Source: a virus
DNA length: 64,000 nt
Strand: one strand, 5' to 3'
IMG/VR virus record: IMGVR_UViG_3300042922_000982
Location: 32,001 to 96,000 of that record
This document shows positions 336 through 54,628 of the stretch, piece after piece. Made by a program: the position numbers and the translations under genes. Every line of letters begins with the position of its first letter. Within the stretch, counting starts at the first letter, position 1. The notes below the pieces were generated by a model. It ran no database searches, was not told where the DNA came from, and was given only the letters and a program-made list of their open reading frames with translations.

Positions 336-373
336 GGAACGGTTTTTTTTGCGTCTGGATAGCAGACAGTAGG
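336..373 (+). promoter_or_regulatory. GGAAC-N16-GGATA-N9-AGG cassette promoter motif, copy 1
   Basis: Conserved intergenic motif followed by hairpin, SD and ATG456. Confidence 0.8.
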
Positions 374-394
374 GAGGGGCGCGTGCCCCGCCCA

Positions 395-421
395 GCCTTA
401 CGCCACCCGTGGCGTGGAGGC
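395..421 (+). repeat. GCCTT-ACGCCA-CCCG-TGGCGT-GGAGGC leader hairpin (also 6414-6455, 8263-8289, 30586-30612, 53452-53478)
   Basis: Five related stem-loops, all in leaders upstream of an SD. Confidence 0.7.
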
Positions 422-455
422 CCCCGTCACCCCCACCGTTGAAAGGAGAACCGCC

Positions 456-860
456 ATGGCCCCCAAGAACACCACCCCCACCGGCAAGGTCCGCATCTAT
501 CGCCGCGTCGAGCAGATCGTCGGCCCTGCTTCCTACATCGACACCCTGATCGCCACCTTCGAGGCGATCGGCGACGCGAGCCGCTACGCGCACCACCTGT
601 CGCAAACCGACATGGCCGACACGGTGATCAAGCAGGGCAAGAACGCCTCGCTGGTGCCGAGCCAGCGCCGGGGCGCCTGCCCGGAGTGCGTCCGGCACTA
701 CAACTGGAACGACTACATGGGCTCGCGGCGCACCGCCACGGGCACGGGTGCCGCCCAGGTGCGCTGCGATTGCGGCGCCTTGATCGAGCTGGACCTCGGC
801 TTCCCGATGGGGGGCCACAAGGCCCGGCTGGTGAGCCACGCCCCCGCCCCCGCCCTCTAG
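456..860 (+). CDS. hypothetical protein with Zn-ribbon (CPEC...CDC)
   Basis: GGAGAACCGCC-ATG start; Cys pairs. Confidence 0.8.
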   Translation: MAPKNTTPTGKVRIYRRVEQIVGPASYIDTLIATFEAIGDASRYAHHLSQTDMADTVIKQGKNASLVPSQRRGACPECVRHYNWNDYMGSRRTATGTGAAQVRCDCGALIELDLGFPMGGHKARLVSHAPAPAL

Positions 861-935
861 CCCCGCCCATCCCCCGGCGGCCCCTTGTGGGGCCGCCGGT
901 TGCCCACTACCATGCCCACACAGGAGGATCACCCC

Positions 936-1463
936 ATGAACAATGAACAGACCGCCCAGCCTACCCTCGCCCCCTTCGTGTTCTACATGTCCACCAGCTG
1001 GATCATTGAAGAGATGGGAGGGAGCATCAAGGTCGAGGACGTGACGATCAAGCGTCCCGGCCTGCGCCATCCCACCGACGAGGAAATCGCGGCGGGCTGC
1101 GAGGACGCCATGGTGCCCTGCGACGAGGAGGAGGAATACCAGCGCGTGACGCTCTACAGCGTGCCCGGCGCCCGGCGCATCACCCATATCGCGGTCGGCA
1201 CCGGCCGCGTGCCCACCGAGGAGGGCTGGAGCCTGAGCGGCATCACGGTGCGCGAGGACTCGGACACCGACGGCCTGCCCTTCTGGAGCTACGAGCGCAC
1301 CAGCGACGGCGCCGATTGCGACGGCCGCTTGTCGAGCACATGGGATGGCTACTCGGACGGCACGCCCGACCCCGACGCGCCCGCCTACATGGCCGATCGC
1401 TCCAACCTGATCAAGAAGGGCTCGGGCCAGCGCGACTACGCAGCCGAGGCGGCCGGTTACTAG
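936..1463 (+). CDS. hypothetical acidic protein
   Basis: AGGAGG SD, GC3-rich codons. Confidence 0.8.
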   Translation: MNNEQTAQPTLAPFVFYMSTSWIIEEMGGSIKVEDVTIKRPGLRHPTDEEIAAGCEDAMVPCDEEEEYQRVTLYSVPGARRITHIAVGTGRVPTEEGWSLSGITVREDSDTDGLPFWSYERTSDGADCDGRLSSTWDGYSDGTPDPDAPAYMADRSNLIKKGSGQRDYAAEAAGY

Positions 1464-1486
1464 CCCCCTACCCCAACACCCCACCT

Positions 1487-1508
1487 GCCCCGGCCGCGCG
1501 GCCGGGGC
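1487..1508. repeat. GCCCCGGCCG-type intergenic palindrome (family of about 13 copies)
   Basis: Perfect palindrome GCCCCGGCCGCGCGGCCGGGGC between stop and next SD; relatives listed in findings. Confidence 0.75.
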
Positions 1509-1527
1509 CCTATAAGGAGAACGCCCC

Positions 1528-1776
1528 ATGACCCAGCACGAGCGCGCCACGATCACCATCCCCGACGATCGCCCCTACACCCTCACCAACGACCCCATGG
1601 ACGACCTGATGCTCATCGACGACGAGGGCGTCCGGCACCCGATCGGCACGGAGTACGCCGAGGCCCTCGGCGCCAGCGACGAGGAGATCGCGCTGGCCCG
1701 CAAGGGCTACAAGATGGCCCTGCGCACCTGCGCGCTCGACCTGCTCAGCGAGCTGCTCCACGAAGGCGGGGACTAG
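1528..1776 (+). CDS. hypothetical protein
   Basis: AAGGAG SD, co-oriented ORF. Confidence 0.8.
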   Translation: MTQHERATITIPDDRPYTLTNDPMDDLMLIDDEGVRHPIGTEYAEALGASDEEIALARKGYKMALRTCALDLLSELLHEGGD

Positions 1777-1780
1777 CCCC

Positions 1781-2053
1781 ATGGAGATCAGCCTGAACAC
1801 GACGGGCCGCACGCACCAGGAGGTCTGGCTCGACGGCACCTTGATCGGGTCCGTGCTCACATGGAGCGCGGGCCCCGGCAAACCCCCTCAGTACGAGGCG
1901 CGCACGGCCGACAGCACCCCGATCCGGCTGGGGCCCAACGGCCCCGACCAGGTCATGTACTACGCGACGTCCGCCGAGGCGGCGGGCGCCGTCCTGATGG
2001 CCTACGGCCAGGGCTTCGCCCACGTCACCCCCGGCTGGTTCAAGAAAGGATAA
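1781..2053 (+). CDS. hypothetical protein
   Basis: Tightly packed co-oriented ORF. Confidence 0.75.
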   Translation: MEISLNTTGRTHQEVWLDGTLIGSVLTWSAGPGKPPQYEARTADSTPIRLGPNGPDQVMYYATSAEAAGAVLMAYGQGFAHVTPGWFKKG

Positions 2054-2058
2054 CAACC

Positions 2059-2322
2059 ATGCCCCACAACCACATGCGCGAGGCCACCGAACTTCGCAAC
2101 GAGATCAAGAGCGCCAAGGAGGCGGCCGACGCCACCATGCCGAACAGCGGGGTATCCGCCAACACCGCCGCGATCGTCGCCGCCCAGGAGGCCGTCACGG
2201 CCAACCAGGCGCTGATGCTCGAGGTGCTGCTCGACATCCGCAGCGTCGCGGTGGCCCAGCTTCAAGAGGCGCGCCGGAACGCGCGGGGCTCGGCGCACCG
2301 GGGCGCCTGCCGGGGCAGTTAG
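2059..2322 (+). CDS. hypothetical helical protein
   Basis: AAAGGA SD; TAG abuts cassette copy 2. Confidence 0.7.
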   Translation: MPHNHMREATELRNEIKSAKEAADATMPNSGVSANTAAIVAAQEAVTANQALMLEVLLDIRSVAVAQLQEARRNARGSAHRGACRGS

Positions 2323-2330
2323 GGCCCCCA

Positions 2331-2368
2331 GGAACGGTTTTTTCAGGCCCTGGATAGTAGATAGTAGG
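2331..2368 (+). promoter_or_regulatory. cassette promoter motif, copy 2
   Basis: GGAAC-N16-GGATA-N9-AGG; about 90 bp nearly identical to copy 5. Confidence 0.8.
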
Positions 2369-2438
2369 GGGAGGGCGCGTGCCCGCCCCCACCGCCAACC
2401 ACCCCGCAAGGGTGCGCACCGTTAAAAGGAGAACCGCC

Positions 2439-3503
2439 ATGGCTCACAATCTGGAAATCATCAACGGCAAGGCTTCCATGTTCAGCGGCTCGGGCGTCAC
2501 GCCCTGGCACAAGCTGGGCGTGGTGCTCCCGCACAACCTGACGGCCGCCGAGGCGATCGTCGCGGCCAACATGGACTGGGACGTGGAGCTGCGCCCGCTC
2601 TACATCGAGATCCCCGGCAAGAGCGGCCGGATCAAGCACCAGGGCATCGAGATCGCCAAGGCGACGGTGCGCGCCACCGACGACGTGGTGCTCGGCACGG
2701 TCGGCAACGCCTACACCCCGCTCCAGAACCGCGAGGCGTTCGGCTTCATCGACGCGATCCTGAGCCCGAAGGACGCCTGCATCGAGACGGCGGGCGTGCT
2801 CGACGGCGGCCGGTGCATCTGGATCATGGTCAAGCTGCCGAAAGACGTCACCGTGAAAGTCGGCCGCCACAAGGACCTGATCACCAAGTACCTGCTGCTC
2901 ACCAACCGCCACGACGGCTTCGGCTGCGTGACGATCAAGATGACGCCCGTGCGGGTCGTGTGCGCCAACACGCTCTCTCAGGCGCTCAAGGGCGGCGGCA
3001 TCCAGATCCGGCACACCGCCTCGGTGGTGAGCCGCACCCAGAACGCGGTCACCGAGGAGATGGGGCTCACCACCAAGTTCACCGAGAACCTGATGGCGCG
3101 CACCAGCGAGTTCTACGCCAACTTCAGCGAGGCCGCCAACGCCATGGGCGCCACCAAGCTGAACGACGAGCGCACCCGCGAGTTCCTGCTCCGCTGCCTC
3201 AAGCGCCAGGCCACCGAGAAGGACTTGTCCGACGCGGAGGCCGTGCGCGACGCGGGCGGCGAGATCAAGGTGCCCAAGGCGCTCGACAAGTGCCTGGAGC
3301 TGGTCGAGTACGGCATGGGCGCCGACATGGCGAAGGGCACGCTCTGGGGCGCCTACAACGCCCTCACCGAGTACGCCGATCACCACATGGGCTACCGCAA
3401 CGACAACAACCGCCTGCGCAACATCGGCTTCGAGGGCAACGGCAACGCCCTCAAGGTGCGCGCCTTCGCCGAGGCGTGCAAGATGGCCAAGGTCGGCATC
3501 TAA
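2439..3503 (+). CDS. DUF932 / phage-plasmid LGT (TIGR03299-like) protein
   Basis: MAHNLE...PWHKLG, YTPLQNREAFGF, ETAGVLDGGR, TPVRVVCANTL, GTLWGAYNALTEYADH motifs. Confidence 0.9.
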   Translation: MAHNLEIINGKASMFSGSGVTPWHKLGVVLPHNLTAAEAIVAANMDWDVELRPLYIEIPGKSGRIKHQGIEIAKATVRATDDVVLGTVGNAYTPLQNREAFGFIDAILSPKDACIETAGVLDGGRCIWIMVKLPKDVTVKVGRHKDLITKYLLLTNRHDGFGCVTIKMTPVRVVCANTLSQALKGGGIQIRHTASVVSRTQNAVTEEMGLTTKFTENLMARTSEFYANFSEAANAMGATKLNDERTREFLLRCLKRQATEKDLSDAEAVRDAGGEIKVPKALDKCLELVEYGMGADMAKGTLWGAYNALTEYADHHMGYRNDNNRLRNIGFEGNGNALKVRAFAEACKMAKVGI

Positions 3504-3552
3504 CCCCACCCCCACCCCCGGCTTCGGCCGGGGGCTTCAGGAGACAAACGCC

Positions 3553-3714
3553 ATGAATATTCGAGTCGAGGTCACCTACTACTGCGGCCACAAGAAAACC
3601 CAAAAGGTCGGTCAATACGAAACCTCCAAGGGCAAAATTCAGCGCGCCAGCGAGATCAACTGCCCTGATTGCGTTCGTGATGTCAAGGCCCGTAAGGGAA
3701 CGGTCCTGAGTTAA
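3553..3714 (+). CDS. small Zn-ribbon protein (53 aa, CGH...CPDC), atypical codon usage, not in ORF track
   Basis: AGGAG SD, MNIRVEVTYYCGHKK...NCPDCVR..., TAA 3712-3714. Confidence 0.75.
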   Translation: MNIRVEVTYYCGHKKTQKVGQYETSKGKIQRASEINCPDCVRDVKARKGTVLS

Positions 3715-3761
3715 CCCATGCCCCCGGCCGCGCGCGGCCGGGGCTTTCAAGGAGATCCGCC

Positions 3762-4313
3762 ATGACCACCCCGACCCCCGCCCCCTTCCGCTTCACTGAG
3801 ATGGACCGCGCCGAGATGGGCTACGCCAACGACCTGCTCTCGGAGCACGGCGTCACCATTCGCCCCGTGCCCGACGAGAACAGCGTGATCGCCTACGACG
3901 CCGACGACGAGGAAATTTACCGCACGCCCGACATGTGCTCCATGGTCGACTTCGTCAACGGCTACGCCGTCTGCGCCGGGCGCATGAGCCCGGCCGCCAC
4001 CCCGCAGGCCAGGCATTGCGAGCGCTGCGGCGGCCCCTACTACGCCAAGGCCCGCTGCCAGCCCTGCTACAAGCACCGCTGGGATCGCGGCGTGGAGCGC
4101 CCGCTGCCCGTCACGGACGGCAAGCCCTGGGAGGTCCTCACGATCAAGCGCGCCGCCGACGGGCGCTACCGCTGGCACGTCCACGGGATCAACCACTACA
4201 CCAAGGAGCCGTTCTACTGGAACGTCGCCGACATCGCCGACCCCCAGTACGGCACCGACAACGTCATCGTCGGCGCCGAGCTGATCGCCGAGGCGAGAAA
4301 GGCCCAGCCGTGA
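3762..4313 (+). CDS. hypothetical protein with CxxC...CxxC
   Basis: AAGGAG SD; CERCGG...CQPC. Confidence 0.8.
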   Translation: MTTPTPAPFRFTEMDRAEMGYANDLLSEHGVTIRPVPDENSVIAYDADDEEIYRTPDMCSMVDFVNGYAVCAGRMSPAATPQARHCERCGGPYYAKARCQPCYKHRWDRGVERPLPVTDGKPWEVLTIKRAADGRYRWHVHGINHYTKEPFYWNVADIADPQYGTDNVIVGAELIAEARKAQP

Positions 4314-4687
4314 CGGCGCGCATCCTGCCCCCGCACCCGATCGGCGCGGGCCAGCCGTTCACCTGGGACGACGTGTTCGCGCACGCCAAGGCCGAGGCCG
4401 AGGCCGTGGCGCCCGTGAGCGAGCTGCTCGCCCTGCTTCCCAAGGGCACCGTCCTGCTCGCGCTGGACGGCTCGCGCTGGCTGTTTGTCGACGAGTGGCT
4501 CGCCAAGCACGGCGATCAATGGCTCAAGCCGGACACCTACGGCCTGGCCACCATGAACGCCGTGCACGAGAGGGGCGGCCGGATTCGAATCTTGCGCCGC
4601 GAGCTGCACCAGGCGGCCGAGGCGTACGACCCCACGATGGCCCTTGTCTGGCACGGCCAGGTCATCAAGTTTCATCTGCCCCGCTAA
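4310..4687 (+). CDS. hypothetical protein
   Basis: GTGA overlap with upstream stop. Confidence 0.7.
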   Translation: MTARILPPHPIGAGQPFTWDDVFAHAKAEAEAVAPVSELLALLPKGTVLLALDGSRWLFVDEWLAKHGDQWLKPDTYGLATMNAVHERGGRIRILRRELHQAAEAYDPTMALVWHGQVIKFHLPR

Positions 4688-4777
4688 CGCCCTGGCGGTG
4701 CCTGGTTCTTGCCGGGCGCCGCCCTCGACTGCTAACATAACAACCACCGCCACCCCCACCGACAACGGAGAACCGCC

Positions 4778-5578
4778 TTGCTACACCCACACGAAATTCA
4801 CCTGCCCGGCTGCGCGCCACAGGCACCCGCCACCCCCGCCACCAAGACATGCCCCGCCTGCCGCATCGACCTCCCCGCCGTCGCCTTCAACTTGTGCCGC
4901 TCGCGGCGCGACGGCTTGCAAGTGTACTGCCGCCCCTGCCACGACAACAAGAAGCTGCAAGCCCGCATGCGCGCGATCGCCATCGAGGTGGCCCGCAAGA
5001 CGGCCGAGGCCGAGGCGATCGCCCAGGGCGCCTACGCCCGCGAGGAGGCGGCCCTATCCATTCTGGATCGGGCCGCCGCCACCGAGGCCGAAAACGACCG
5101 GCTGCACGACGCGCTCGCCTTCGACCGCGTGCGCATGCTGGAGCTTCACGCCCGGCTATCCGCCCTCGAGTCCCAGTTGTCCGGCCGCGCGGCCCCCGCC
5201 GCCCCCGCCGACTGGAAGGCCGACGCCGTCGCCTCGGTGCACCGGGCCCTGCGCCACGAGATGGGCTTCGCGCTCGACGAGCTGCGCGAGCGCTTCGGCC
5301 GCGCGGACGGCGTCGACCGCGCGCTCGACGCGGCGGCCTTCGCCGAGAGCAACTTCCCCGGTGACTCCCACGCCATGCGGCTCATCTTCAAGAAGGCGGT
5401 CCGCATCCACCTGCGCCCCATGATCGAGGGCGCGCTCATGACGCGCGAGCACGACAACAACCAATGGGGCCGCAGCATCTGGATCGCCCAGATCGGCCGC
5501 GAGTACCGCATCGCCTACGACCTGAAGGGCGATCGCCCGGCGTTCGTCAAGACCTCGACGCGCGCCTGCTTTTTCTAG
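4778..5578 (+). CDS. hypothetical protein, N-terminal Zn finger of the type found on phage HNH/endonuclease VII proteins, plus coiled coil
   Basis: GGAGAACCGCC-TTG start; KTCPAC...F...RDGLQVYCRPC. Confidence 0.7.
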   Translation: MLHPHEIHLPGCAPQAPATPATKTCPACRIDLPAVAFNLCRSRRDGLQVYCRPCHDNKKLQARMRAIAIEVARKTAEAEAIAQGAYAREEAALSILDRAAATEAENDRLHDALAFDRVRMLELHARLSALESQLSGRAAPAAPADWKADAVASVHRALRHEMGFALDELRERFGRADGVDRALDAAAFAESNFPGDSHAMRLIFKKAVRIHLRPMIEGALMTREHDNNQWGRSIWIAQIGREYRIAYDLKGDRPAFVKTSTRACFF

Positions 5579-5671
5579 CCCCGTCCCCTCACCCCCCATC
5601 GCCCGCCCCGGCAGGGAAGCGCAACCGTGCGCGGCCCGCACCGGGGCGGGCTTTTGACAAGGAGAACCGCC

Positions 5672-6262
5672 ATGGATCCCAACGCCAACATCGCCGAGCA
5701 GCGGCGCATCACCGCCCAAATACTCGACGTCAACGACCCCGGTCGGCTCGACGAGCTGGCCGTTCGGCTTGCCGAGCTGAGCCAGGCCCTCGACGAGTGG
5801 CGCCGAAAGGGCGGCTTCGACCCGTACCTGGGGGCCCCCGAGTACGTCGGCAACAACATGGCGGCCCAGCGCGAGCTGGCGTCGAGCATCGTGGGGGCCT
5901 GGCGCGCGCCCGGCGGCGCCTACGAGCCCGCCGACGGCGCCAAGCTCGCCGAGATGGTGCTGGCGCACGCCGCGCCCGCCAAACCCGACGCCATGCGCGC
6001 GCTGGCCCTTGAGATCACGGCCATGTATGAGGGCGACGGCGAGAGCGGCAACATCGCCGCCAAGGCGTACGCGCTCGCCGACATGGTGATCTGCCAGCCG
6101 CCCACGCTGGCGCTCACCAACGATCAGCGCGCCAAGCTGCGCCAGGCGGCCTCCGAGCGCGGCGAGGAGGTGACGCCCGAGTACCTGCACGAGCAGGCCG
6201 AGCGGGCGCTCGCGATCGGCGTGAACACCATTTACGAGCCGGACTACGACGAGCGCGTGTAG
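5672..6262 (+). CDS. conserved phage hypothetical protein (MDPNA...ALDEW..KGGF.P)
   Basis: Start-associated motif; N-terminal motif recurrent in phage proteins. Confidence 0.75.
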   Translation: MDPNANIAEQRRITAQILDVNDPGRLDELAVRLAELSQALDEWRRKGGFDPYLGAPEYVGNNMAAQRELASSIVGAWRAPGGAYEPADGAKLAEMVLAHAAPAKPDAMRALALEITAMYEGDGESGNIAAKAYALADMVICQPPTLALTNDQRAKLRQAASERGEEVTPEYLHEQAERALAIGVNTIYEPDYDERV

Positions 6263-6274
6263 GCGATCGCGCGG

Positions 6275-6303
6275 AGGCCCGCCCCCACCGGGGCGGGCCT
6301 TTT
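6275..6303 (+). terminator. intrinsic terminator
   Basis: AGGCCCGCCCC-CACC-GGGGCGGGCCT followed by T run. Confidence 0.75.
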
Positions 6304-6354
6304 GTCGTTTGTGGTGTCGGTTTACAAACCTTCTAACAGGCAGGCCCGGCCGCC

Positions 6355-6363
6355 TGGTATCAT
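6355..6363 (+). promoter_or_regulatory. extended -10 (TGgTATCAT) upstream of dnaN
   Basis: TGn-TANNNT in an AT-richer gap after a terminator. Confidence 0.5.
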
Positions 6364-6504
6364 GGCCGCGTGCGACCCTGCGCATGCCCCTCCCTAAAGG
6401 GGCCGTCACCCCCGCCTTCCGCCACCCGGTCATAGCGACCACGGTGCGTGGAGGCCCCAGCCACCCGCGCCCGCCGGGCGCCACCGAAAGGATCCACCAC
6501 CCGC

Positions 6505-7632
6505 ATGAAGTTCACCATCGAACAGGCCGCCCTTCGTGAGTTGCTCTCCAAGGTGCGCCCCTTCATCTCGACCCGCGCGCCCCAGCCGGTGCTGAACAAC
6601 TTTTTGATCGGCGTGAAAGACGGCACGCTGTCGGTCTACGGCACCGACATGGAGTGCACCATGATGACCGGCACCACCCTGCTCGCCGCCACCGACGGCC
6701 GCGTGACGGTGCCTGCCAAGCAGCTGACGGACATCGTCGGCAAGCTGCAAGGCGGCCCGATCGACATCACCTGCGAGGACGGCGTCGAGACCGTCGTCAA
6801 GCAGAAGCGGACCACCTTCAAGCTGCGCGGCATGGTCGCAGCCGAGTACCCGGATCCCAAGGTGCCGCAGGGCGAGCCGGTCCTTGAGCTGGAGGCGAGC
6901 CTCCTGCTCGACATGATCACGCGCACGAGCTACGCCATCATGGGCGGCGAGAACGCGGGCGTTTTGGGCGGCATGTGGCTGCGCCTGCAAGGCGGGCGCC
7001 TGGAGGCGTGCGGCACGGACGGCTTCCGCTTGAGCCACTACGTCAGCGAGTTCGACGCCGACGGCGAGTTCACCGTGATCATCCCGCGCCGCGCCGCCTC
7101 CGAGGTCGCCAAGCTGCTCAAGGGCGCGCAGGGCGCCGTCAAGCTCTTCGAGTCGCGCGGGGAGCTGGGCATCGAGGTCAACGGCGGCGAGGCGTTCATG
7201 ACGACCCGGCACCTCGACGGGCTCTACCCGCCCTTCTGGCAGGTGATCCCCAAGGAGTCCATGCAAACGGTCTACCTGGACCGCCAGAGCCTGATCGACG
7301 CGGTCGACCGCGTGTCGATCATGACCAGCGAGCTGGAGGCGGACCTCATCACGCTCAACTTCGCCGGGGGCGAGCTGACGATCAAGGCCACCCGCGACGC
7401 GACGGGCAGCGGCTCGGACGTGGTCAACTGCGCCGAGGTGTCCGAGCCCTTCGAGGTGCTCATGAAGGCGGGCTACCTGCTCGACTCGCTCAAGAGCAAC
7501 GATTCGGCCAACGTCGGCTTCTTCTTCGCGGGCAAGGGCAAGCCCTGCCTGCTGGTTTCCGACCGCGAGGGTGATCCGCTCACCAGCTTGATCATGCCGT
7601 TCCAGCAGCCGAACGCCCCCGCCCAGGCGTAG
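6505..7632 (+). CDS. dnaN: DNA polymerase III beta sliding clamp
   Basis: 375 aa; MKFTIEQ, GTDME, VPAKQL, EYP, GTDGFRL, IIPRRA, GLYPPFWQVIP, YLLDSL, LIMP motifs. Confidence 0.93.
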   Translation: MKFTIEQAALRELLSKVRPFISTRAPQPVLNNFLIGVKDGTLSVYGTDMECTMMTGTTLLAATDGRVTVPAKQLTDIVGKLQGGPIDITCEDGVETVVKQKRTTFKLRGMVAAEYPDPKVPQGEPVLELEASLLLDMITRTSYAIMGGENAGVLGGMWLRLQGGRLEACGTDGFRLSHYVSEFDADGEFTVIIPRRAASEVAKLLKGAQGAVKLFESRGELGIEVNGGEAFMTTRHLDGLYPPFWQVIPKESMQTVYLDRQSLIDAVDRVSIMTSELEADLITLNFAGGELTIKATRDATGSGSDVVNCAEVSEPFEVLMKAGYLLDSLKSNDSANVGFFFAGKGKPCLLVSDREGDPLTSLIMPFQQPNAPAQA

Positions 7633-7635
7633 GCC

Positions 7636-46895: not shown

Positions 46896-47642
46896 ATGAC
46901 CACCCAGACCCCCGCCGCCATCGAGCGCACCCCCGCCGTCACCGCCCTGGCCCTGTGCCTGCGCCCCCTGTTCGACTACCACGTCGCCAACGCCGACCTG
47001 GTCGATGATCACTCGGTCGGCCTGTGCGTGTGCGCCGAGGTGAGCGACATCGCCTTCGCCGAGGGCCTGTTCGCCATCGTCAACGCGCCGCGCACCTTCT
47101 ACGAGGCGGGCCTGCGCATGCGCGGCACGTCGCGGAGCGATCGCATGGCCATCCTCGAGGCCGTGCGCGAGTACGTGATCGCCCACCCGCTCGGCGCCAT
47201 CCTCGAGAGCCGGGGCGGCTCGCTGCGGGCCGAGCGCCTGGGCATGTCGGGCGCCACCTACGATCGGCTCGACCTGGGCGGCCCGATCAACGAGAAGCTC
47301 GACCCCGTGATGGTGCAGCTGAGCTTCAACCGCCCCGAGGGCATGGAGCAGCCCGACGACGGCGAGACCGTCGCCATGCGGCTCGACGAGGAGGTGCTGA
47401 GCCACTACAAGCTCGCAGAGACGATTGACCGCTGGCTGATGGACGAATGGGCGCGCATCGGCTTCGGCTGGCGCTCGAAGGGGCGCACCTTCGACCTGCA
47501 CCGCGAGCTGACCGAGGTGGGCGCGCGCCTGGTGAAGGAGTGGACGCCCGCGCCGGGCGGCGAGCTGGACCCCGGCGTGGAGCTGCTTGTCGGCATGGCC
47601 GCGCAGGCGATCGCCGCCTACGGCCACGCGGAGGTGGCGTGA
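46896..47642 (+). CDS. hypothetical protein
   Basis: AAGGAGTACCGCC-ATG. Confidence 0.8.
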   Translation: MTTQTPAAIERTPAVTALALCLRPLFDYHVANADLVDDHSVGLCVCAEVSDIAFAEGLFAIVNAPRTFYEAGLRMRGTSRSDRMAILEAVREYVIAHPLGAILESRGGSLRAERLGMSGATYDRLDLGGPINEKLDPVMVQLSFNRPEGMEQPDDGETVAMRLDEEVLSHYKLAETIDRWLMDEWARIGFGWRSKGRTFDLHRELTEVGARLVKEWTPAPGGELDPGVELLVGMAAQAIAAYGHAEVA

Positions 47643-47977
47643 TGTTCGAGGTCATGAGCAAGCGGTGTAACCAGTGCCTGTTCGGCCCGAACCGGATCGT
47701 GGACGCGGACCGCAAGGCCGAGATCCTCGCCGAGTGCACGGCCACGGGGAAGCACTTCACCTGCCACAAGGCGACCATGCACTCGCGCAGCATGGACGTG
47801 TGCTGCCGGGGCTTCTGGGACGCCTTCCGGGTGTCGCACGCCACGCAGGGCATGCGATTGGCGCAGTACCTGCGGCCGGACGCGCCGTGGACCTTCATCG
47901 ATCCCGGCACGCTCAAGGTGGTGGGGCACGGGCTCACCCCACCCGAGGCGGCCCCGGCGGCAACGCCTACCGAGTGA
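47642..47977 (+). CDS. Cys-rich phage protein (CNQCLF...FTCHK...CRGF)
   Basis: TGATG coupling, GGAGG SD. Confidence 0.75.
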   Translation: MFEVMSKRCNQCLFGPNRIVDADRKAEILAECTATGKHFTCHKATMHSRSMDVCCRGFWDAFRVSHATQGMRLAQYLRPDAPWTFIDPGTLKVVGHGLTPPEAAPAATPTE

Positions 47978-48065
47978 GCCACGGCGGCGTGGTAGACTGG
48001 CGGTCAGCAGGCAAGCAACCTGCTGGCCGCCTTTTCTCGTCTTCGCCTGCCGAAAGGATCCACCT

Positions 48066-48965
48066 GTGTCCCAATTCGACCCCGAGTTCCTCGACTTCAT
48101 CACCGACCACATGTCGGACGTCTTCAAGGCGTCCGCGTGCGGGCACTACGACGCGCTCAATTACAAGGATTGCGCCAACCACCTGGCCGTGCTGGCGTCT
48201 GAGACGGGCCTGCTCGGCTCCGAGACCCCCGAGGGCTTCTTGAACGCCGACGTGATCGACACGCTCTACAGCATGGCCACGGCCGCCTTCGCCTGCTTGA
48301 TGTGGAGCTACGGCGAAACCTTCGACCAGATGCGCGCACGCCTGAGCGATCGCCTGCTCGACACCCACCACGCCGCCTTCCACGCGGCCGACGGCTGGAT
48401 GGGGCTCGATCACTACCGGGGGCCGTCGTTCCAGCTGCTGACCGAAATCTTCAAGCTCGGCGGCGAAGTGAGCGCGGCAGCGGTCGAAATTGCCGATCCG
48501 GTGCCGCCCGGCAACGCCGCCTGCGAGAAGCAGCTCTGGGAGGTGCTCACAGCCATCCTGGCCGTGACGGCCACGGTCACGTTCATGCACGACGAGGTCC
48601 TCGAACGCGCGCAGGCGGCCCAGGAGGCGGCGAAAGAGTACCGCAAGCACGGCATGGGTGCGATGACCCTGATCGTCTGCGCGATCGCCGACCCCGACGT
48701 GTTCGCCTTCCCGCTCGGCGAGCACAACATCATGGCGCAGGTGGAGCGCAGGCTCGCGGGCAACATGCTGATCGCCTCGGTGGACCTCGACGAGGTCACG
48801 GCCTACCTGAGCGCCTGCGAGGCCAAGGACAACCTGCCCATGGCCATGATGCCCGTGCTCGGCGTGTGCGTGCCGCAGCCGGACGGCACCATCGACACGG
48901 TCACGATCCTCGAGACGTTGCGCGAGGCGGCCATGCGCGAAGAGGGGCTCAACCCGGACGATTAA
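48066..48965 (+). CDS. hypothetical acidic helical protein
   Basis: AAAGGA + GTG; TGgTAGACT at 47990. Confidence 0.8.
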   Translation: MSQFDPEFLDFITDHMSDVFKASACGHYDALNYKDCANHLAVLASETGLLGSETPEGFLNADVIDTLYSMATAAFACLMWSYGETFDQMRARLSDRLLDTHHAAFHAADGWMGLDHYRGPSFQLLTEIFKLGGEVSAAAVEIADPVPPGNAACEKQLWEVLTAILAVTATVTFMHDEVLERAQAAQEAAKEYRKHGMGAMTLIVCAIADPDVFAFPLGEHNIMAQVERRLAGNMLIASVDLDEVTAYLSACEAKDNLPMAMMPVLGVCVPQPDGTIDTVTILETLREAAMREEGLNPDD

Positions 48966-48993
48966 GCGCCCGATCGGGCCGCCAGGGCCCCCA

Positions 48994-49031
48994 GGAACGC
49001 TTTTTTCGGGGCGTGGATAGTAGATAGTAGG
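48994..49031 (+). promoter_or_regulatory. cassette promoter motif, copy 15
   Basis: GGAAC-N16-GGATA-N9-AGG. Confidence 0.8.
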
Positions 49032-49096
49032 GAGGGGCTACCGGGCAACCGGCGGCCCCTCCTCCGTCACCCCCATCACCGAAAGGAGCGCTCACC

Positions 49097-49498
49097 ATGC
49101 GCATCACCATCCACACCACCGCCACCGAGTCCACCAACGAGCAGAGCCGCACCTACACGGAGCTGCCGATCGCCACCTCCTCCATGTTCACGCACGGCCC
49201 CTGCGACCCCTTCACGATCGTCGCGCACAACGGCGAGGTCGAGTCGGCCTGCACCGTGATCCTGCACGGGCCGAACGGGCACCTGTTCATCATCCTACTC
49301 ACCGGCACGGCCAACGACATCCGGACGATCTTCTGGAACCTGTATTGCAACGCCTACGGCGTGCGCCAGAAGACCTGGGTCGGCGAGATCTACAACACGA
49401 TCGCCGACCACCTGCCCAAGTGCCTGGAGTGCGAGGGCCAGGTGGACGCCACCGGCTGGTGCGCGGCCCGCTGCTGCCCGACGGCCCTCACCTGCTAA
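49097..49498 (+). CDS. hypothetical protein with Cys-rich C-terminus
   Basis: AAAGGAG SD. Confidence 0.75.
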   Translation: MRITIHTTATESTNEQSRTYTELPIATSSMFTHGPCDPFTIVAHNGEVESACTVILHGPNGHLFIILLTGTANDIRTIFWNLYCNAYGVRQKTWVGEIYNTIADHLPKCLECEGQVDATGWCAARCCPTALTC

Positions 49499-49550
49499 GC
49501 CCCCACCGCCCCCGGCCGCACGGCCGGGGGCTTCCCCGGAGGATACCGCC

Positions 49551-49859
49551 ATGGGAAACTTGAACCGCTACCCGGACGACCTGAAGGAATGGAAGGACGA
49601 ATGGCTCACCACCGAGGCCGGGCACCACGCCTTCATGGCGCGAGTCGGCCGTGACCCCGAGGAGCGCGCCGCGTCGGCTGCGCGCGTGAAAGAGCTCAAC
49701 GCCGAGATCGCCCGCCGCTACCCCGACCGCGACGCGCTGATCGAGGAGATCATCCGGCGCCACCTGGAGCGCACCAGCGAAACGGACGCCAGCATCGCCA
49801 ACCTCCGCCGCTGGTGGCAGGATCAGCCCACCGCCGATCTGCAAGCCGCCCTCGAGTAA
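49551..49859 (+). CDS. hypothetical protein
   Basis: GGAGG SD. Confidence 0.8.
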   Translation: MGNLNRYPDDLKEWKDEWLTTEAGHHAFMARVGRDPEERAASAARVKELNAEIARRYPDRDALIEEIIRRHLERTSETDASIANLRRWWQDQPTADLQAALE

Positions 49860-49887
49860 CGCCACCCCCCAACCAAGGAGAACCGCC

Positions 49888-50121
49888 ATGACCACCGCCA
49901 ACGCCCCCACCCACCTGGTCGGCACCAAGATCACCTTCTCGATCCCCGTGACGGCCGATACCGACGACGCGGCGATCGACGCCGCGCTCAAGCGCCTCAC
50001 CGACGCCCTGCGCCAAGCCTTCCCCGAGGCCGCGCCGCCGCGCCTCTCGGACGCCGCCGCGTCGCGCATCTACCCCGTGAGCCGGGTGTCCGACCCGCTC
50101 GCTGCCCGCCCGGTTGCTTAA
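49888..50121 (+). CDS. small hypothetical protein
   Basis: Start-associated motif. Confidence 0.75.
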   Translation: MTTANAPTHLVGTKITFSIPVTADTDDAAIDAALKRLTDALRQAFPEAAPPRLSDAAASRIYPVSRVSDPLAARPVA

Positions 50122-50134
50122 GGAGACCCCCGCC

Positions 50135-50515
50135 ATGCGCCAAGTGCACACCCACCCCGACGGCCGCCGCTTCACGCTCTGCCAGGGCGACGATTTCAAG
50201 GACGGCGATCGCGTGATCCTGATCAGCAATCCGCTCTACCCCCTGCACGCCCCGGTGATCGGCACCTTCTCGAAGCCGCACGCCACGGGCGGAACGGTCA
50301 CCTACTACGCCGACCGCGACGGCGACGAGCCCGGCGAGCTTGAAACCGACGCCATCACCCTCGAATGGGTGTCCTACAAGGCCATGCTGCCCGCCACGGC
50401 CGCCGCGCTCGACTGGGTGGCCTCCGACCTGGAGGCCCAGGCGGGGCGGTTCCGGCGGCTTCGCGAGCAGCTGTACGGCACGGCCACCGGCGACGTCGAT
50501 CGCCCGCTGCCGTGA
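50135..50515 (+). CDS. hypothetical protein
   Basis: AAGGAG SD. Confidence 0.75.
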   Translation: MRQVHTHPDGRRFTLCQGDDFKDGDRVILISNPLYPLHAPVIGTFSKPHATGGTVTYYADRDGDEPGELETDAITLEWVSYKAMLPATAAALDWVASDLEAQAGRFRRLREQLYGTATGDVDRPLP

Positions 50516-50655
50516 AGCGCCCCGCCCCCCTGCCCTGCCAATTCTGCGGGCGTGCCGACGGTGACGTCGGCACGCGCCAGATCGGGCACGACATCCTGTC
50601 CCGCGTGTGCGACCCCTGCACGGCCCTGCGCCGCGCCGCGCGTCGCCGCCCCTAG
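50512..50655 (+). CDS. tiny CxxC...CxxC protein
   Basis: GTGA overlap; CQFC...CDPC. Confidence 0.55.
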   Translation: MKRPAPLPCQFCGRADGDVGTRQIGHDILSRVCDPCTALRRAARRRP

Positions 50656-50670
50656 CCCATGGAGACCCCC

Positions 50671-51204
50671 ATGACCGAGCACATCAACACCCCGCTGCCC
50701 CTGCCGACGGCCCCGCAGCCCTACGACAACCTGAACCGCGCCTTCCGGGCCCTGTGCAAGCGCGAGGGCACCGCGCTGGATTGCTACCACGACCCTCGAG
50801 ACGTCGACGAGGTGTTCGGCCACGCCAGCCTGGTCGACGCGTTCCTGGTCGACGTGATCAAGAGCAAGCACTGGCGCGCGCGCGCCAACCCGGATGGCCT
50901 CCTCGACCTGGTCGTGCCCGGCGAGGTCGAGATCGTGGCGTACCGGGTCATCCAGCCCGCCGATCGCGCCTGGGGGCCGCGCGTGGTGCAGGAGGTGCCC
51001 CTGCTGCCGCCCCTGAGCAACGCGGATGAGGAGGGCATCAACATGACCCTCGACACGTTCGTCTCGCAGATCATGGGCTGCCTGGCCATGTCGGGCGAGC
51101 TGGCGCTTGCTCGCCAAAGCGGCCCCAACGGCGAGGACCCCGACGAGGAACCCTGCGGCCAGTGCGGCCGGGTGGATTGCGTCTGCGACGAGGAGGAGGA
51201 ATAG
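50671..51204 (+). CDS. hypothetical acidic protein
   Basis: GGAG SD. Confidence 0.75.
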   Translation: MTEHINTPLPLPTAPQPYDNLNRAFRALCKREGTALDCYHDPRDVDEVFGHASLVDAFLVDVIKSKHWRARANPDGLLDLVVPGEVEIVAYRVIQPADRAWGPRVVQEVPLLPPLSNADEEGINMTLDTFVSQIMGCLAMSGELALARQSGPNGEDPDEEPCGQCGRVDCVCDEEEE

Positions 51205-51206
51205 CC

Positions 51207-51386
51207 ATGGCCGTGAATGGCAAGCACAAGAAAACCTGCGGCTCGACGCGCTGCGAGCGGTGCTACGGCGAGATGGTCAACACGCGCCGGAAGCGCGAGC
51301 CCCAGCCCGGCGATCGCAAGAAGATCGCCAGCATGGCGAGTCAGGTGGCCGAGGCGATCGCCCCGGAGCCCCCGCGCGCCCAGTAA
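51207..51386 (+). CDS. small Cys-containing basic protein
   Basis: GGAGG SD; H...CGSTRCERC. Confidence 0.65.
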   Translation: MAVNGKHKKTCGSTRCERCYGEMVNTRRKREPQPGDRKKIASMASQVAEAIAPEPPRAQ

Positions 51387-51394
51387 CCCCCTGC

Positions 51395-51428
51395 ACGCCA
51401 GGCCCCCGTCGCGGGGCCTGGCGTTTTT
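51395..51428 (+). terminator. intrinsic terminator
   Basis: ACGCCAGGCCCC/GGGGCCTGGCGT followed by TTTT. Confidence 0.8.
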
Positions 51429-51493
51429 GCGTCGGTGGGCCCCTGATCGGAGGTAGGATGGGCCTGCTTAACCATCACTTGAGGAGGATTGAC

Positions 51494-52177
51494 ATGCCCA
51501 TTCCCGTGAACACGGCCCCCGCCGACTTGCAGCCCGCGCTGATCGTCGCCTGCAACGAGCTGTCGGATCGCGTCGATGTGCCCCGTGAGGGCACCCGCGC
51601 GCCCGAGTCCTGGGTGCGCTACTTCGCCGCCCGCCCCGGCAGCATCGACCTGGCCAAGCTCGGCGCCATCTGGGCGGCCGTCGTCTACACCGACGCGACC
51701 AAGCAGACGGTGGCCGCCGCCAACGCCGTCCCGGTGATCGATTGCGACGTGGCGACCACGGCCGCGCTCGCCGCCAACACCCTCACCGCTGGCGAGCTGG
51801 TGGCCTCCGCCAACGGCGCGCTCGCCAACATCGACGGCCAGGCCCCCGCGCTCAAGAAGATCGTCCTGGTGAAAAACGAGGCAGACGCCACCAAGCTCGG
51901 CTTCTACGTGATCACCGACCTGGGCTCGGCGGGCACCCCCTGGAAGATGAAGCGCGTTCCGGGCGCCACCTTGCAGAACAAGGCCGCCACGCTGGTCAAG
52001 ACCGGCACGGCCAACGCGAACAAGGTCTTCCGCATCACCACGGCCAACCCGATCGTGGCGGGCACCACGGCGATCGCCTTCGCCGAGCTGGCCTCCGCCA
52101 GCGCGGTCGAGGCCCTCTTCGAGGTGGCCACCGCCTTGCAGCCGACCGTCGGCCTGGTGCTCTCGCCCAAGCTGTAA
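51494..52177 (+). CDS. virion-associated / tail-fibre-like domain protein
   Basis: GAGGAGG SD; VATTAAL...GAL.IDG...IVLVKNE...GFYVITDLGS..TPW pattern seen in phage structural proteins. Confidence 0.6.
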   Translation: MPIPVNTAPADLQPALIVACNELSDRVDVPREGTRAPESWVRYFAARPGSIDLAKLGAIWAAVVYTDATKQTVAAANAVPVIDCDVATTAALAANTLTAGELVASANGALANIDGQAPALKKIVLVKNEADATKLGFYVITDLGSAGTPWKMKRVPGATLQNKAATLVKTGTANANKVFRITTANPIVAGTTAIAFAELASASAVEALFEVATALQPTVGLVLSPKL

Positions 52178-52191
52178 GCACACAACCCCAA

Positions 52192-52236
52192 GGGGCGGTC
52201 CGCATGGTACGATCCATGCGGACCGCCCCCTTTTTT
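52192..52236 (+). terminator. intrinsic terminator
   Basis: 16-bp stem GGGGCGGTCCGCATGG/CCATGCGGACCGCCCC followed by TTTTTT. Confidence 0.85.
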
Positions 52237-52249
52237 ACGGAGAACCGCC

Positions 52250-53128
52250 ATGTCCAAACCGCCTCGCCCCAGATTCATCGTCACGTCCTCGCCCCATATG
52301 GCCGACGATTTCTTCCGCTCCCGGCACGAGATCGCCAAGAGCGTCACTGTGCGGCGCGTCCCGGCCGCCGAGTTCCCGCCTTTGCCCAGGGCGGCCTCGT
52401 GGGGCACGGCGGCCACGGTGCCCCTCGTGGGGGCCCCGACGGCGGCGCCGTTCAGCGTGCCCGAGCGCACGCCCGATCACGCGGCGATCGCCGGGCACAT
52501 CACGCGCCTGATCGCCCACCTGCACACGCCGCCCCCCATGCCCGAGCCCACCAACGTCATGCGCGGCCTGCTCGCACCCGATCTGCGCGAGGCGATCGCG
52601 CGGCAGCGGCAGGGTGCCGACCTGTTCAGGCAGGCGGCCCAACGCGACGCGGAGGGCATCGCCACCGGCCGCATCGAGCTGCGCGCGGACAACCGCGTCC
52701 CGCCGGATCAGGTGCACCTGTTCGATCGCGCCGGGCGCCGCACAGGTGCGATCACCAACCTCGACAACGACACCCTCTCGGCCCCATGGCCCACCGGCGT
52801 ATGGGCGGGCGACCCCCGCGAGGAGGCCCCGTGGCCGTACCGGCCGCGCCGGGGTGGCGGCTTCATGCAGATGGACGAGCAAGCCTTCAAGCCGAAGGAG
52901 CCCCCGATGCGGACGATCGCCTTCAAGTGCCGGGGCTGCGGCGCCACGGGCGTGGTCGACGTGCCCGAGCCCATCTTCAACGACGTGGGGGTGAAGGTGG
53001 TCGTGGACATGACGCAACAGGCCACGGCCGACGGCTGCCTCAAGTGCATGGACGCGGTGCATGGGCTCGGCTACTCGATCGGTGTGACCTACCCCTACCC
53101 GGCCGACTGGCTCGAGCCCCGGCGGTAG
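52250..53128 (+). CDS. hypothetical protein with C-terminal CxxC...CxxC
   Basis: Start-associated motif; TAG abuts copy 16. Confidence 0.7.
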   Translation: MSKPPRPRFIVTSSPHMADDFFRSRHEIAKSVTVRRVPAAEFPPLPRAASWGTAATVPLVGAPTAAPFSVPERTPDHAAIAGHITRLIAHLHTPPPMPEPTNVMRGLLAPDLREAIARQRQGADLFRQAAQRDAEGIATGRIELRADNRVPPDQVHLFDRAGRRTGAITNLDNDTLSAPWPTGVWAGDPREEAPWPYRPRRGGGFMQMDEQAFKPKEPPMRTIAFKCRGCGATGVVDVPEPIFNDVGVKVVVDMTQQATADGCLKCMDAVHGLGYSIGVTYPYPADWLEPRR

Positions 53129-53136
53129 GGCCCCCA

Positions 53137-53174
53137 GGAACGGTTTTTTCGGGGCCTGGATAGCAGGTAGTAGG
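53137..53174 (+). promoter_or_regulatory. cassette promoter motif, copy 16
   Basis: GGAAC-N16-GGATA-N9-AGG. Confidence 0.8.
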
Positions 53175-53225
53175 GAGGGCTGGGCGGCACGCGCCGCGCA
53201 CCCCTCCCCGCTACGGAGAACCGCC

Positions 53226-53432
53226 ATGGACACCCCACCCACCGTCACCATCCCCGATCGCCTGTACCGCGCCGCCGTGCGGCTCGTCAATAGCACCTTC
53301 CCCGGCGCCGCGCCCACGCACGGCCTGATGGGTGCCTGCTTCGTGGAGACGCCCGCCGGGCGCATCCTCGGCGCGGGCCCCAGCTTCCGCGAGGCGTACG
53401 TCGTCGCGGCCGAGCGCCTGGCCGCCCGCTAA
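53226..53432 (+). CDS. small hypothetical protein
   Basis: Start-associated motif. Confidence 0.75.
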   Translation: MDTPPTVTIPDRLYRAAVRLVNSTFPGAAPTHGLMGACFVETPAGRILGAGPSFREAYVVAAERLAAR

Positions 53433-53502
53433 CCCCACCCCCGTCACCCCAGCCTTCCGCCACCCGTGGCGTGGAGGCCCCACCGTTACAAGGAGAACCG
53501 CC

Positions 53503-53931
53503 ATGGGACACTACCTCACGCACACCACCCTCGATCACGCCATCACCTACGCCACCAACGAGCCCGAGACGGCCGTCATTCACGTCCTGACCGACCCCAA
53601 GCTGGGGCCGATCACCACCACGAGTACCGACGCGGCCATGTACGCCCTGCGCCAGGGGGCCACGCACCACCTGACGCTCAACGGCCCCAAGCTGGTCGAG
53701 CCCGAGAACTACAAGCCCGCGCCGCTGCCGCCCAAGGCCGAGGGCTACGCAAACGTGGCCGTGTTCGAGCCGTACGGCCTGGGCAAGCGCGACCTGGTCG
53801 ACGTGTACGTGCGCCTGGTGGGCGCCCGCGTCGAGATCCAGCTCGACGACAAGCAGGCGAAAACGATGCACGCGAACGCCACCTCCTTGATCAACCTGCC
53901 CCACACCACTTGCGCCATCTTCTGGCGGTGA
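53503..53931 (+). CDS. hypothetical protein
   Basis: Start-associated motif. Confidence 0.8.
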   Translation: MGHYLTHTTLDHAITYATNEPETAVIHVLTDPKLGPITTTSTDAAMYALRQGATHHLTLNGPKLVEPENYKPAPLPPKAEGYANVAVFEPYGLGKRDLVDVYVRLVGARVEIQLDDKQAKTMHANATSLINLPHTTCAIFWR

Positions 53932-53945
53932 AAGGACCCTACGCC

Positions 53946-54254
53946 ATGACGAACCTCAACACCCCCGCCCCCCTGGCCCCCGAGGCCGCCCTCACGGCCA
54001 CCGTCGCCGCCTTGCAGGGCGTCTTGCAAAGCATCGAGCGCGGTGACACCGGCACCACGCCGTCGGTGCGCCGGATGATCGCCCAGGCGATCGCGATCGG
54101 CTGCACGACGCTCGGCGACCCCGAGGGCGCATCCGACGCGGAATCCAAGCAGGATCCGCCCGAGCCGAAGGGCCTGAGCCCGGAGGACTACTTCGCCGGG
54201 CCGCGCCCGTACCGCGCGCTGGGCGGGCACCCCCGCTCGACCCTGCTGCGCTAG
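53946..54254 (+). CDS. hypothetical protein
   Basis: AAAGGA SD. Confidence 0.7.
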   Translation: MTNLNTPAPLAPEAALTATVAALQGVLQSIERGDTGTTPSVRRMIAQAIAIGCTTLGDPEGASDAESKQDPPEPKGLSPEDYFAGPRPYRALGGHPRSTLLR

Positions 54255-54264
54255 GGGGCCGCCG

Positions 54265-54582
54265 ATGACGACCCCGAAGATCACCAGGAAGGCCAAGGGC
54301 CTGCTCGACAAGCCCCTGGTCCTCGACGCCATGATGAACGGCCGGTACGTCGTGGAGACGAAGGCGGGCCGTTTCGTCGGCGCCTTCGACACCATGGGGG
54401 AGGCGCAAGAGGCCGCATTCAACGACGAGCGGGCGGCGCACCACGAGCTGCACTACCCGCTCGACGAGCAGGCCCTGCGCAAGCTCAGGATCCGCATGCT
54501 CGAAATCCCGAGCGACGAGCGGGTGGTGCGGGCGATCGCCGCGCTTGACGACGCCATGAAAAAGCGCGGGGTCACCGCGTAG
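54265..54582 (+). CDS. hypothetical protein
   Basis: Co-oriented ORF; TAG abuts copy 17. Confidence 0.75.
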   Translation: MTTPKITRKAKGLLDKPLVLDAMMNGRYVVETKAGRFVGAFDTMGEAQEAAFNDERAAHHELHYPLDEQALRKLRIRMLEIPSDERVVRAIAALDDAMKKRGVTA

Positions 54583-54590
54583 GGCCGCCA

Positions 54591-54628
54591 GGAACGGTTT
54601 TTCACCCGCCTGGATAACAGGTGGCAGG
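54591..54628 (+). promoter_or_regulatory. cassette promoter motif, copy 17
   Basis: GGAAC-N16-GGATA-N9-AGG. Confidence 0.8.

Follow-up and report, generated by a model that had tools for sequence, protein, structure and literature searches.

A repeated candidate promoter-leader cassette heads the gene units of a small-gene block in an uncultured phage

Introduction

Phage sigma factors such as SPO1 gp28 and gp33/34, T4 gp55 and phiEco32 gp36 each read a promoter class of their own. Among bacterial alternative sigma factors, those of the extracytoplasmic function (ECF) type recognise promoters such as GGAAC-N16/17-CGTT (EcfG) and GGAACTT-N16-TCTGA (RpoE), and sigma-28 (FliA/WhiG) recognises TAAAGTTT-N11-GCCGATAA. 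Bacterial and phage mRNAs may also carry a stabilising hairpin at the 5' end, as in ompA-type leaders. Here we describe an intergenic element, GGAAC-N16-GGATA-N9-AGG followed by a hairpin and a ribosome site, which occurs 17 times in a window of 64,000 nucleotides of the virus record IMGVR_UViG_3300042922_000982. The window comprises bases 32001-96000 of this 157,406-bp record, which is rated complete; coordinates refer to the window unless marked genome. The elements, denoted cassettes, are best explained as lineage-specific start sites for transcription and translation, and the candidate reader is a sigma-like module fused to an SNF2 motor.

The cassettes resemble the promoter classes of phage sigma factors in having a phage-specific, non-host consensus in many copies within one gene block, and in belonging to a phage that encodes a sigma-like protein and no polymerase. 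The candidate sigma, however, is a module of a 2,128-amino-acid (aa) SNF2 fusion and not a small free protein. With ECF promoters they share the GGAAC -35 element, the T-rich stretch next to it and the 16-nt gap; they differ in the -10 box, GGATA(G/A), and no protein built of sigma2 and sigma4 only was found in the phage, the candidate sigma having region 3. The GATA core and the block-N11-block geometry recall sigma-28 promoters, and the relative L062 has CGATAA and GCCGATAA, whereas the cassette upstream box is unrelated to TAAA(GTTT) and a G, not a C, precedes GATA. The cassettes resemble ompA-type leaders in that a stable hairpin sits very close to the 5' end, at a constant distance, and that the ribosome site behind it is open, although the cassette 5' end is a predicted one. 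An earlier note on this DNA had drawn a parallel between the elements and the promoter-early stem-loop (PeSL) cassettes of T4-like phages, which join a terminator stem-loop to a strong sigma-70-like early promoter of the TTGACA-N17-TATAAT types (Arbiol et al. 2010, PMC2839356; Comeau et al. 2014, PMC4122927). Both are compact regulatory units repeated in front of small ORFans where the genome is hyperplastic; recombination between copies and a consensus specific to each phage pair are further common traits. The parallel is incomplete, however: the cassette promoter is not sigma-70-like, the hairpin, as part of the leader, lies downstream of it, has no T-run and is no terminator, and a terminator stands just upstream in only 1 of 17 copies. 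We regard the cassettes as PeSL-like in role and not as PeSLs.

Results

A pattern search of the window for GGAAC-N16-GGATA-N9-AGG found 17 exact sites, whereas 100 dinucleotide shuffles of the window gave none. All 17 are on the plus strand and intergenic, within the plus-strand small-gene block, and the exact search and gene map agree with the earlier note on their number, positions and placement at gene boundaries. Allowing one mismatch added no site in the window, and the entire record holds none beyond the 17. A 52-column weight matrix made from the 17 copies, applied to both strands of the genome, picked up nothing further above 8 bits, against 35-87 bits for the true copies; the family is therefore sharply bounded. 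Occurrence in equal measure inside genes and on both strands, which the earlier note had named as one outcome that would speak against a promoter, is thus not what the genome displays. The GGAAC start lies 69-120 nt before the next ATG, and the stop codon of the upstream gene often adjoins GGGCCCCCA. The cassettes, from upstream box to ATG, are as follows.

327..458, plus strand: cassette 1, GGAAC at 336; at the divergent junction; extra second leader hairpin, in common with cassette 3
2322..2441, plus strand: cassette 2, GGAAC at 2331; heads the DUF932 gene; leader equal to that of cassette 5 over 52 nt
8196..8326, plus strand: cassette 3, GGAAC at 8205; heads a 109-aa open reading frame (ORF; 8324-8653)
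8667..8786, plus strand: cassette 4, GGAAC at 8676; GGATAA variant
11736..11856, plus strand: cassette 5, GGAAC at 11745; exact pattern match
13900..13998, plus strand: cassette 6, GGAAC at 13909; most divergent (35 bits), without CCCCCA box; a 26-codon mini-ORF comes next
17252..17363, plus strand: cassette 7, GGAAC at 17261; mosaic, left part equal to cassette 8 (33 nt), right part to cassette 15 (52 nt)
19105..19207, plus strand: cassette 8, GGAAC at 19114; exact pattern match
23415..23525, plus strand: cassette 9, GGAAC at 23424; heads gene g75; in the closest relative, too, the g75 homolog stands directly behind a cassette remnant
29774..29854, plus strand: cassette 10, GGAAC at 29783; sole copy without a hairpin
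37124..37228, plus strand: cassette 11, GGAAC at 37133; GGATAA variant with a hairpin type of its own
42561..42656, plus strand: cassette 12, GGAAC at 42570; sole copy with a canonical terminator just upstream (hairpin end 42527, T-run)
43379..43488, plus strand: cassette 13, GGAAC at 43388; exact pattern match
46199..46311, plus strand: cassette 14, GGAAC at 46208; exact pattern match
48985..49099, plus strand: cassette 15, GGAAC at 48994; exact pattern match
53128..53228, plus strand: cassette 16, GGAAC at 53137; mosaic, left part equal to cassette 9 (38 nt), right part to cassette 17 (33 nt)
54582..54699, plus strand: cassette 17, GGAAC at 54591; GGATAA variant

The upstream box consists of (G)GGCCCCCA, GGAACG(G/C) and then 4-8 T, its consensus being CCCCCAGGAACGG with the T-run after it. 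The copies are preceded by GGGCCCCCA, exact in 13 of the 17 and with one change in 2 more, in line with the shared sequence that had been noted before most copies. The T-run is followed by a variable spacer of 7-11 nt in 10 different versions, the downstream box GGATA(G/A), 8 purine- and AT-rich bases that usually end in AGT, and AGG. Conservation is block-wise, both boxes being invariant against 10 spacer variants, and the 16-nt and 9-nt distances around a variable spacer, as first described, are kept in all 17 copies. The AT fraction from +20 to +34 is 0.53-0.58, as against 0.31 for the window and 0.08-0.18 for the hairpin.

In 15 of 17 copies the GG of AGG is the start of a stable GC-rich hairpin; copy 13909 has it 4 nt farther upstream, and in copy 29783 it is missing. 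The stems that share this start position have at least six unrelated sequences. The z-scores of the hairpins against shuffles are modest (-0.2 to -2.9) because shuffled GC-rich sequence folds too, so that the argument for the hairpin rests on its fixed position and varied stems. Behind it comes a G-poor leader, often with (C)GTYACCCCCACCG, then AAAGGAGAACCGCC and the ATG; ACCCCCACC is a leader segment of the cassettes distinct from the hairpin. All 17 copies have a Shine-Dalgarno (SD) sequence, with AAGGAGAACCGCC as the consensus ribosome site, and about 11 have an ACCCCCA(C/T)C box; the three parts noted earlier from the AGG onward are thus present, the C-rich box less generally than the other two. 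The ribosome site GGAGAACC precedes 28 of 113 block genes versus 6 of 115 arm genes.

Three further readings of the anatomy were rejected. The T-run is not a terminator tail, as a convincing hairpin precedes it only in copies 336 and 8676 and the closest relative has no T-run. Pairing of GGGCCCC with the spacer is possible in about half of the copies and absent in the CACCCGCC class. Stop codons do not fill all three frames across the cassette, the TAGs covering two at most. We also noticed that at the first cassette (289-350) a mirror image of the -35 box and T-run, AAAAAAACCGTTCC, is found about 21 nt farther upstream, giving a symmetric hairpin with T-runs on both strands, and that this cassette comes just after an ORF of 45 codons that has an SD of its own (about 142-280).

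Exact-motif scans of viral, metagenome and genome contig collections gave single matches only, in unrelated and mostly low-GC DNA or in coding sequence, and recovered no relatives. These were found only through capsid and sigma homologs in Logan assemblies, where the capsid homologs led to four lineages. The closest, lineage B (capsid 73% identical), has CCCCCA GGAAC-N16-GGATAG CAGATCGT GGG at the homologous divergent junction, where three contigs end inside the cassette, on the upstream side of the gene-29 homolog and 180 nt away from it; both boxes and their distance match those of this phage, the spacer is unrelated and there is no T-run. A second copy, CCCCCA GGAAC-N16-GGATAG-N8-AGG (L067:16053), occupies the only sizeable gap of an 18.7-kb small-gene stretch, and the contig with this stretch begins at a cassette leader before the g75 homolog, just as g75 directly follows cassette 23424 here. 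Contig breaks inside cassettes are what repeats would be expected to cause.

In the more distant relatives the design recurs with a different upstream box. Lineage C (L058/L062, capsid 52% identical) has TTCTAC(A/T)TAG-N11-CGATA in 4 copies versus 0.11 expected, on the small-gene strand only, each followed by the hairpin GGGGCGAGCGCCCC and an SD. Lineage D (L096, capsid 48% identical, GC 57%) has 5 exact copies of TTCTACA-N13-CGATAG versus 0.01 expected, likewise on the small-gene strand only; in each, some 9 bases rich in purines come next, then a hairpin, TTGAAAGGAGC and ATG. What the lineages keep is thus the downstream GATA box, a distance of 21-22 nt between the boxes, the hairpin and the ribosome site, and what they replace is the upstream box. 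A strict distance, a free spacer and box replacement would be expected of a DNA reader with two domains, for example a sigma factor, and not of an RNA signal.

We examined to which promoter class the boxes could belong. Two consensus scans found no TTGACA/TAnnnT pair of the primary-sigma type at any of the 17 cassettes, and the downstream GATAG(T/C/A) lacks the invariant last T of TAnnnT in 7 of 17 copies. By sequence the cassettes are not primary-sigma (sigma-70/SigA) promoters, as had been suggested for a non-sigma70, two-box element. The earlier note had further taken GGAAC for an ECF-type -35. This holds for the box and its gap (GGAAC-N16 in all 17 copies here and in both copies of the closest relative); the -10 box, in contrast, is GGATA(G/A) in all copies and not of the CGT/GTC type, and the Sigma70_r2, r4 and r4_2 profiles at E<=1 gave no match in the phage besides two weak helix-turn-helix (HTH) matches. 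The cassettes are not clean ECF promoters, since the -10 is not CGT-type and neither an ECF sigma nor a phage RNA polymerase was found. A literature search for a GGAAC-N16-GGATA consensus returned nothing relevant, and Rfam gave no match over the window at gathering thresholds.

Searches with Pfam and PHROGs and in six frames detected no RNA polymerase or stand-alone sigma factor in the phage, and its only sigma-like module lies at residues ~285-530 of the 2,128-aa protein, where Pfam Sigma70_r3 and NCBIfam sigma families match. Of the sigma or polymerase that the earlier note had suggested looking for, then, only the sigma-like module is present. The same protein, here denoted sigma-SNF2, has an SNF2/ResIII/Helicase_C motor at ~1390-2040.

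61587..64000, continuing to genome 99973, minus strand: 3' part of the sigma-SNF2 gene (2,128 aa), candidate reader of the cassettes

An AlphaFold2 model of residues 285-620 made with 16 homologs reached a predicted local distance difference test (pLDDT) score of 85, and in Foldseek its best 50 matches were all sigma factors. Domain 2 of the model superposes on SigE-N with Z 12.2 (1.5 A over 78 residues) and on sigma-28 with Z 11.1, a further likeness to the sigma-28 system; the alignment to the sigma-28 holoenzyme covers model residues 9-236, and VIA alignments to holoenzyme sigmas span 1-247. In the model the candidate reader has sigma domains 2, 3 and 4 in order. Ten homologs were found at E<1e-10, five of which are giants of 2.1-2.25 thousand residues; homologous giants are thus encoded by no fewer than five further metagenomic phages. 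The module homolog of lineage B, which has the GGAAC box, is 46% identical, and lineage C, which has the TTCTAC box, encodes a more diverged 649-aa version (34.5% identity) whose gene sits at the corresponding end of its block of small genes.

The motif GTG(G/T)CAAATGG stands about 30 nt upstream of a (T)GCTACNNT extended -10 at genome 4313, 32020 (window 20) and 100052, all on the minus strand, and these sites front two structural operons and the sigma-SNF2 gene. A GTGGCAAAT box is likewise present at the divergent junction of the relatives L059 and L095, and the GTG(G/T)CAAATGG/GTGGCAAAT box is probably a conserved late-gene control site. Sigma-SNF2 and the next two large proteins (636 and 519 aa; N-termini at genome 99973, 102569 and 104157, minus strand) have in common the N-terminal motif V(R/K)AHxxHxKxGxVxQV...VNK, which may be a common targeting or processing signal. 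The late-type box and shared N-terminus fit late synthesis of sigma-SNF2 and its possible packaging; they demonstrate neither.

Comparison of the copies with each other revealed exact shared runs of up to 52 nt, and chimeras with shared runs of 33-52 nt: copy 17261 is the left half of 19114 joined to the right half of 48994, and copy 53137 is the left half of 23424 joined to the right half of 54591. The copies therefore recombine and may well help to shuffle gene modules, a role to which the sequences lend an even chance. Structural genes are syntenic between the phage and lineage B (35-73% identity), whereas only six block genes have homologs in the 18.7 kb of lineage B, in scrambled order. 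The linkage of cassette and g75 is kept in lineage B; the gene after g75 differs and no cassette lies between the two. Of the swappable modules proposed earlier, the mosaic copies and hyperplastic block are borne out, and the confinement of replacements to cassette boundaries is not: replacements occur at non-cassette places as well, so that cassettes are at most one of several joints.

The genome has three parts, with genes called by third-position GC. Genome 0-32 kb carries structural genes on the minus strand (baseplate J, SU10-type capsid protein, sheath, tube), 32.4-91.8 kb carries about 115 small genes on the plus strand, and 91.8-157 kb is again minus strand, with portal, NUDIX, methylases, thymidylate enzymes, SSB and helicase loader. 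The portal is about 35% identical to SPO1-type portals; a megablast of 20 kb against GenBank phages gave no match, and a beta-clamp search of species genomes found no close homolog. The cassettes divide the block into 17 units of 0.5-7.4 kb with 1-17 genes each. It is a hyperplastic region of small ORFan genes like those that harbour PeSLs: only about 8 of 113 genes have a Pfam family, among them a beta clamp, DUF932, SpoVS, DUF6011 and a weak DHHA1, and with PHROGs further genes are recognised as HNH and endonuclease VII types and as coding for a Lar-like restriction alleviation protein. The block contains nine strong canonical intrinsic terminators and is therefore not one long read-through unit; only cassette 42570 directly follows one.

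456..59756, plus strand: small-gene block proposed to be served by the cassettes, about 115 genes
6273-6305, 9170-9198, 15045-15078, 42505-42533 and 48007-48036, plus strand: canonical intrinsic terminators
51400-51429, 52192-52237, 59335-59363 and 59800-59828, plus strand: canonical intrinsic terminators

Host-type promoters of the form TGnTAnnnT, (T)GCTACNNT, occupy 11 intergenic sites, 9 of them on the minus arms. Host-type TGCTACNNT promoters are present inside or just after the block at 15135 and 58625 (plus strand) and at 60653 and 60851 (minus strand), and the block therefore mixes two promoter classes. Two of these four stand before tRNA-like RNAs, and the sole tRNA called in the genome by ARAGORN is a tRNA-Ala(TGC)-like gene of 89 nt at 60552-60640 (minus strand). 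The otherwise dense block has gaps of 400-730 nt without a called gene at 52177-52907, 26559-27072, 20819-21292 and 35516-35921, which may hold missed small genes or non-coding RNAs.

The motif GCGATCGC occurs 190 times in the 157 kb versus about 6.5 expected from base composition, extended to GGCGATCGCC at about 94% of sites (e.g. 5570-5600), and is also enriched in relatives (L064, L067; 23-28 sites per 20-26 kb). GCGATCGC/GGCGATCGCC is the HIP1 palindrome typical of cyanobacteria (PMC4390886). The phage also encodes two D12-class adenine methylases. The host may be a cyanobacterium, but a GC content of 70% would be out of the ordinary in that group.

Discussion

We propose that each element is a lineage-specific start cassette for both transcription and translation, the best explanation of the data as a whole, to which we assign a probability of roughly 0.5. 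Promoter activity, taken by itself, is very likely. CCCCCAGGAACGG and GGATAG, 21 nt after the GGAAC start, would form a two-box promoter not of the primary-sigma type, and the AT-rich 13 nt from GGATAG to AGTAGG would be the likely region of melting and start. The transcript would begin 0-4 nt before the GC-rich hairpin, which would protect the 5' end of the mRNA, and the G-poor leader would keep the strong ribosome site AAGGAGAACCGCC open. The 17 copies would drive 17 units of the 60-kb accessory-gene block.

Since the phage lacks an RNA polymerase of its own, transcription must rely on the core enzyme of the host. The architecture survives in relatives that have another upstream box, which makes a sigma-like protein of the phage the probable reader of the cassettes, and the specificity factor we propose is the module at residues ~285-530 of sigma-SNF2. 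The pairing of this particular module with the cassettes, drawn from three lineages, is an evenly balanced proposition. Several observations weigh against it or against the cassette reading in general. Neither the helix-turn-helix of region 4.2 is evident in the module by sequence nor is the aromatic cluster of bacterial region 2.3 conserved there; the correspondence of box to sigma comes from three lineages only; the sigma-SNF2 gene itself has a host-type extended -10 promoter; the upstream box, at 13 or more nt, exceeds the usual length of a -35 element; and the relatives L057 and L095 use unrelated intergenic repeats in the same block. In L057 (2100-8100, minus strand) these are tandem CCTGTGTAAC units, and in L095 (85-2441, minus strand) GATAA-N-ATTATC inverted repeats stand before CGACC. 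Control systems, as these sequences indicate, diversify fast in this phage clade.

The same promoter-leader unit could instead be read by a host alternative sigma, of the ECF or sigma-28/SigF type. GGAAC, T-run and 16-nt gap make a classic ECF -35 geometry, the GATA core resembles the sigma-28 -10 GCCGATAA, which the relative L062 has itself, and the relatives with other boxes differ in GC (57-70%), which suggests different hosts. Yet GGATA is not a CGT-type ECF -10, the extended motif gave single matches only in 185,579 species genomes (for example inside the rpoC coding sequence), a normally sequestered stress sigma would be an unusual choice for 60 kb of genes, and the phage carries a sigma-like module of its own; we consider a host alternative sigma unlikely. 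A somewhat smaller chance falls to the host primary sigma redirected by a DNA-binding activator, of phage or host origin, on the long upstream box, with the GGATAG region as a weak -10. Sigma appropriation by T4 MotA/AsiA and class II activators are precedents, the upstream box of 13-18 nt is activator-sized, and the HTH proteins of the phage (HTH_17 three times, besides LexA-type and MarR/TrmB-type) would supply candidates. Against such redirection, no TAnnnT can be placed, the last-position T being absent in 7 of 17 copies and in both lineage B copies, and clear TGnTAnnnT promoters stand elsewhere in the genome, so that the contrast looks deliberate.

Two explanations do without a promoter. 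The conserved part could act in RNA, as an RNase E-like processing site made of an AU-rich single strand beside a hairpin, or as an antitermination signal, given that 16 of 17 copies have no terminator between cassette and upstream gene and read-through RNA would contain the cassette; moreover, AUAGUAGAUAGUA beside the hairpin resembles an RNase E site. The strict box distance, free spacer and three motif versions argue instead for recognition of double-stranded DNA, as does an upstream box that changes wholly between relatives while the distance is kept, and the lack of an Rfam match also tells against an RNA signal, which we consider improbable. By far the smallest chance falls to a repeat that is selfish or serves recombination only and plays no part in expression, such as a miniature mobile element or a recombinase site. 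The mosaic copies and the lineage B contigs that break at them would suit such a repeat, whereas the cassettes always lie on the coding strand just before SD and ATG, never within genes or on the other arms, and no terminal inverted repeats or target duplications were seen.

The cassettes of this phage, read as start sites, provide a precise promoter consensus for an uncultured clade that has no studied member and whose kinship to SPO1-type myoviruses shows only in the portal, at ~35% identity. One promoter architecture in three versions, beside diverged sigma-like modules, makes a natural experiment on the co-evolution of promoter and reader, and recombining regulatory cassettes in hyperplastic regions are extended beyond host-type promoters. 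In a more far-reaching and doubtful scenario, sigma-SNF2 would be made with the virion genes, packaged and injected, and would at once direct the core polymerase of the host to 17 early promoters of the phage's own, unreadable to any host sigma; the lineages would then differ in which sigma module has co-evolved with which upstream box (GGAAC or TTCTACA). If sigma-SNF2 is the reader, and especially if it is virion-borne, it would represent a new phage route to the takeover of host transcription; a virion-borne sigma would parallel, on the side of the sigma factors, the RNA polymerases that N4 and phiKZ-type phages inject.

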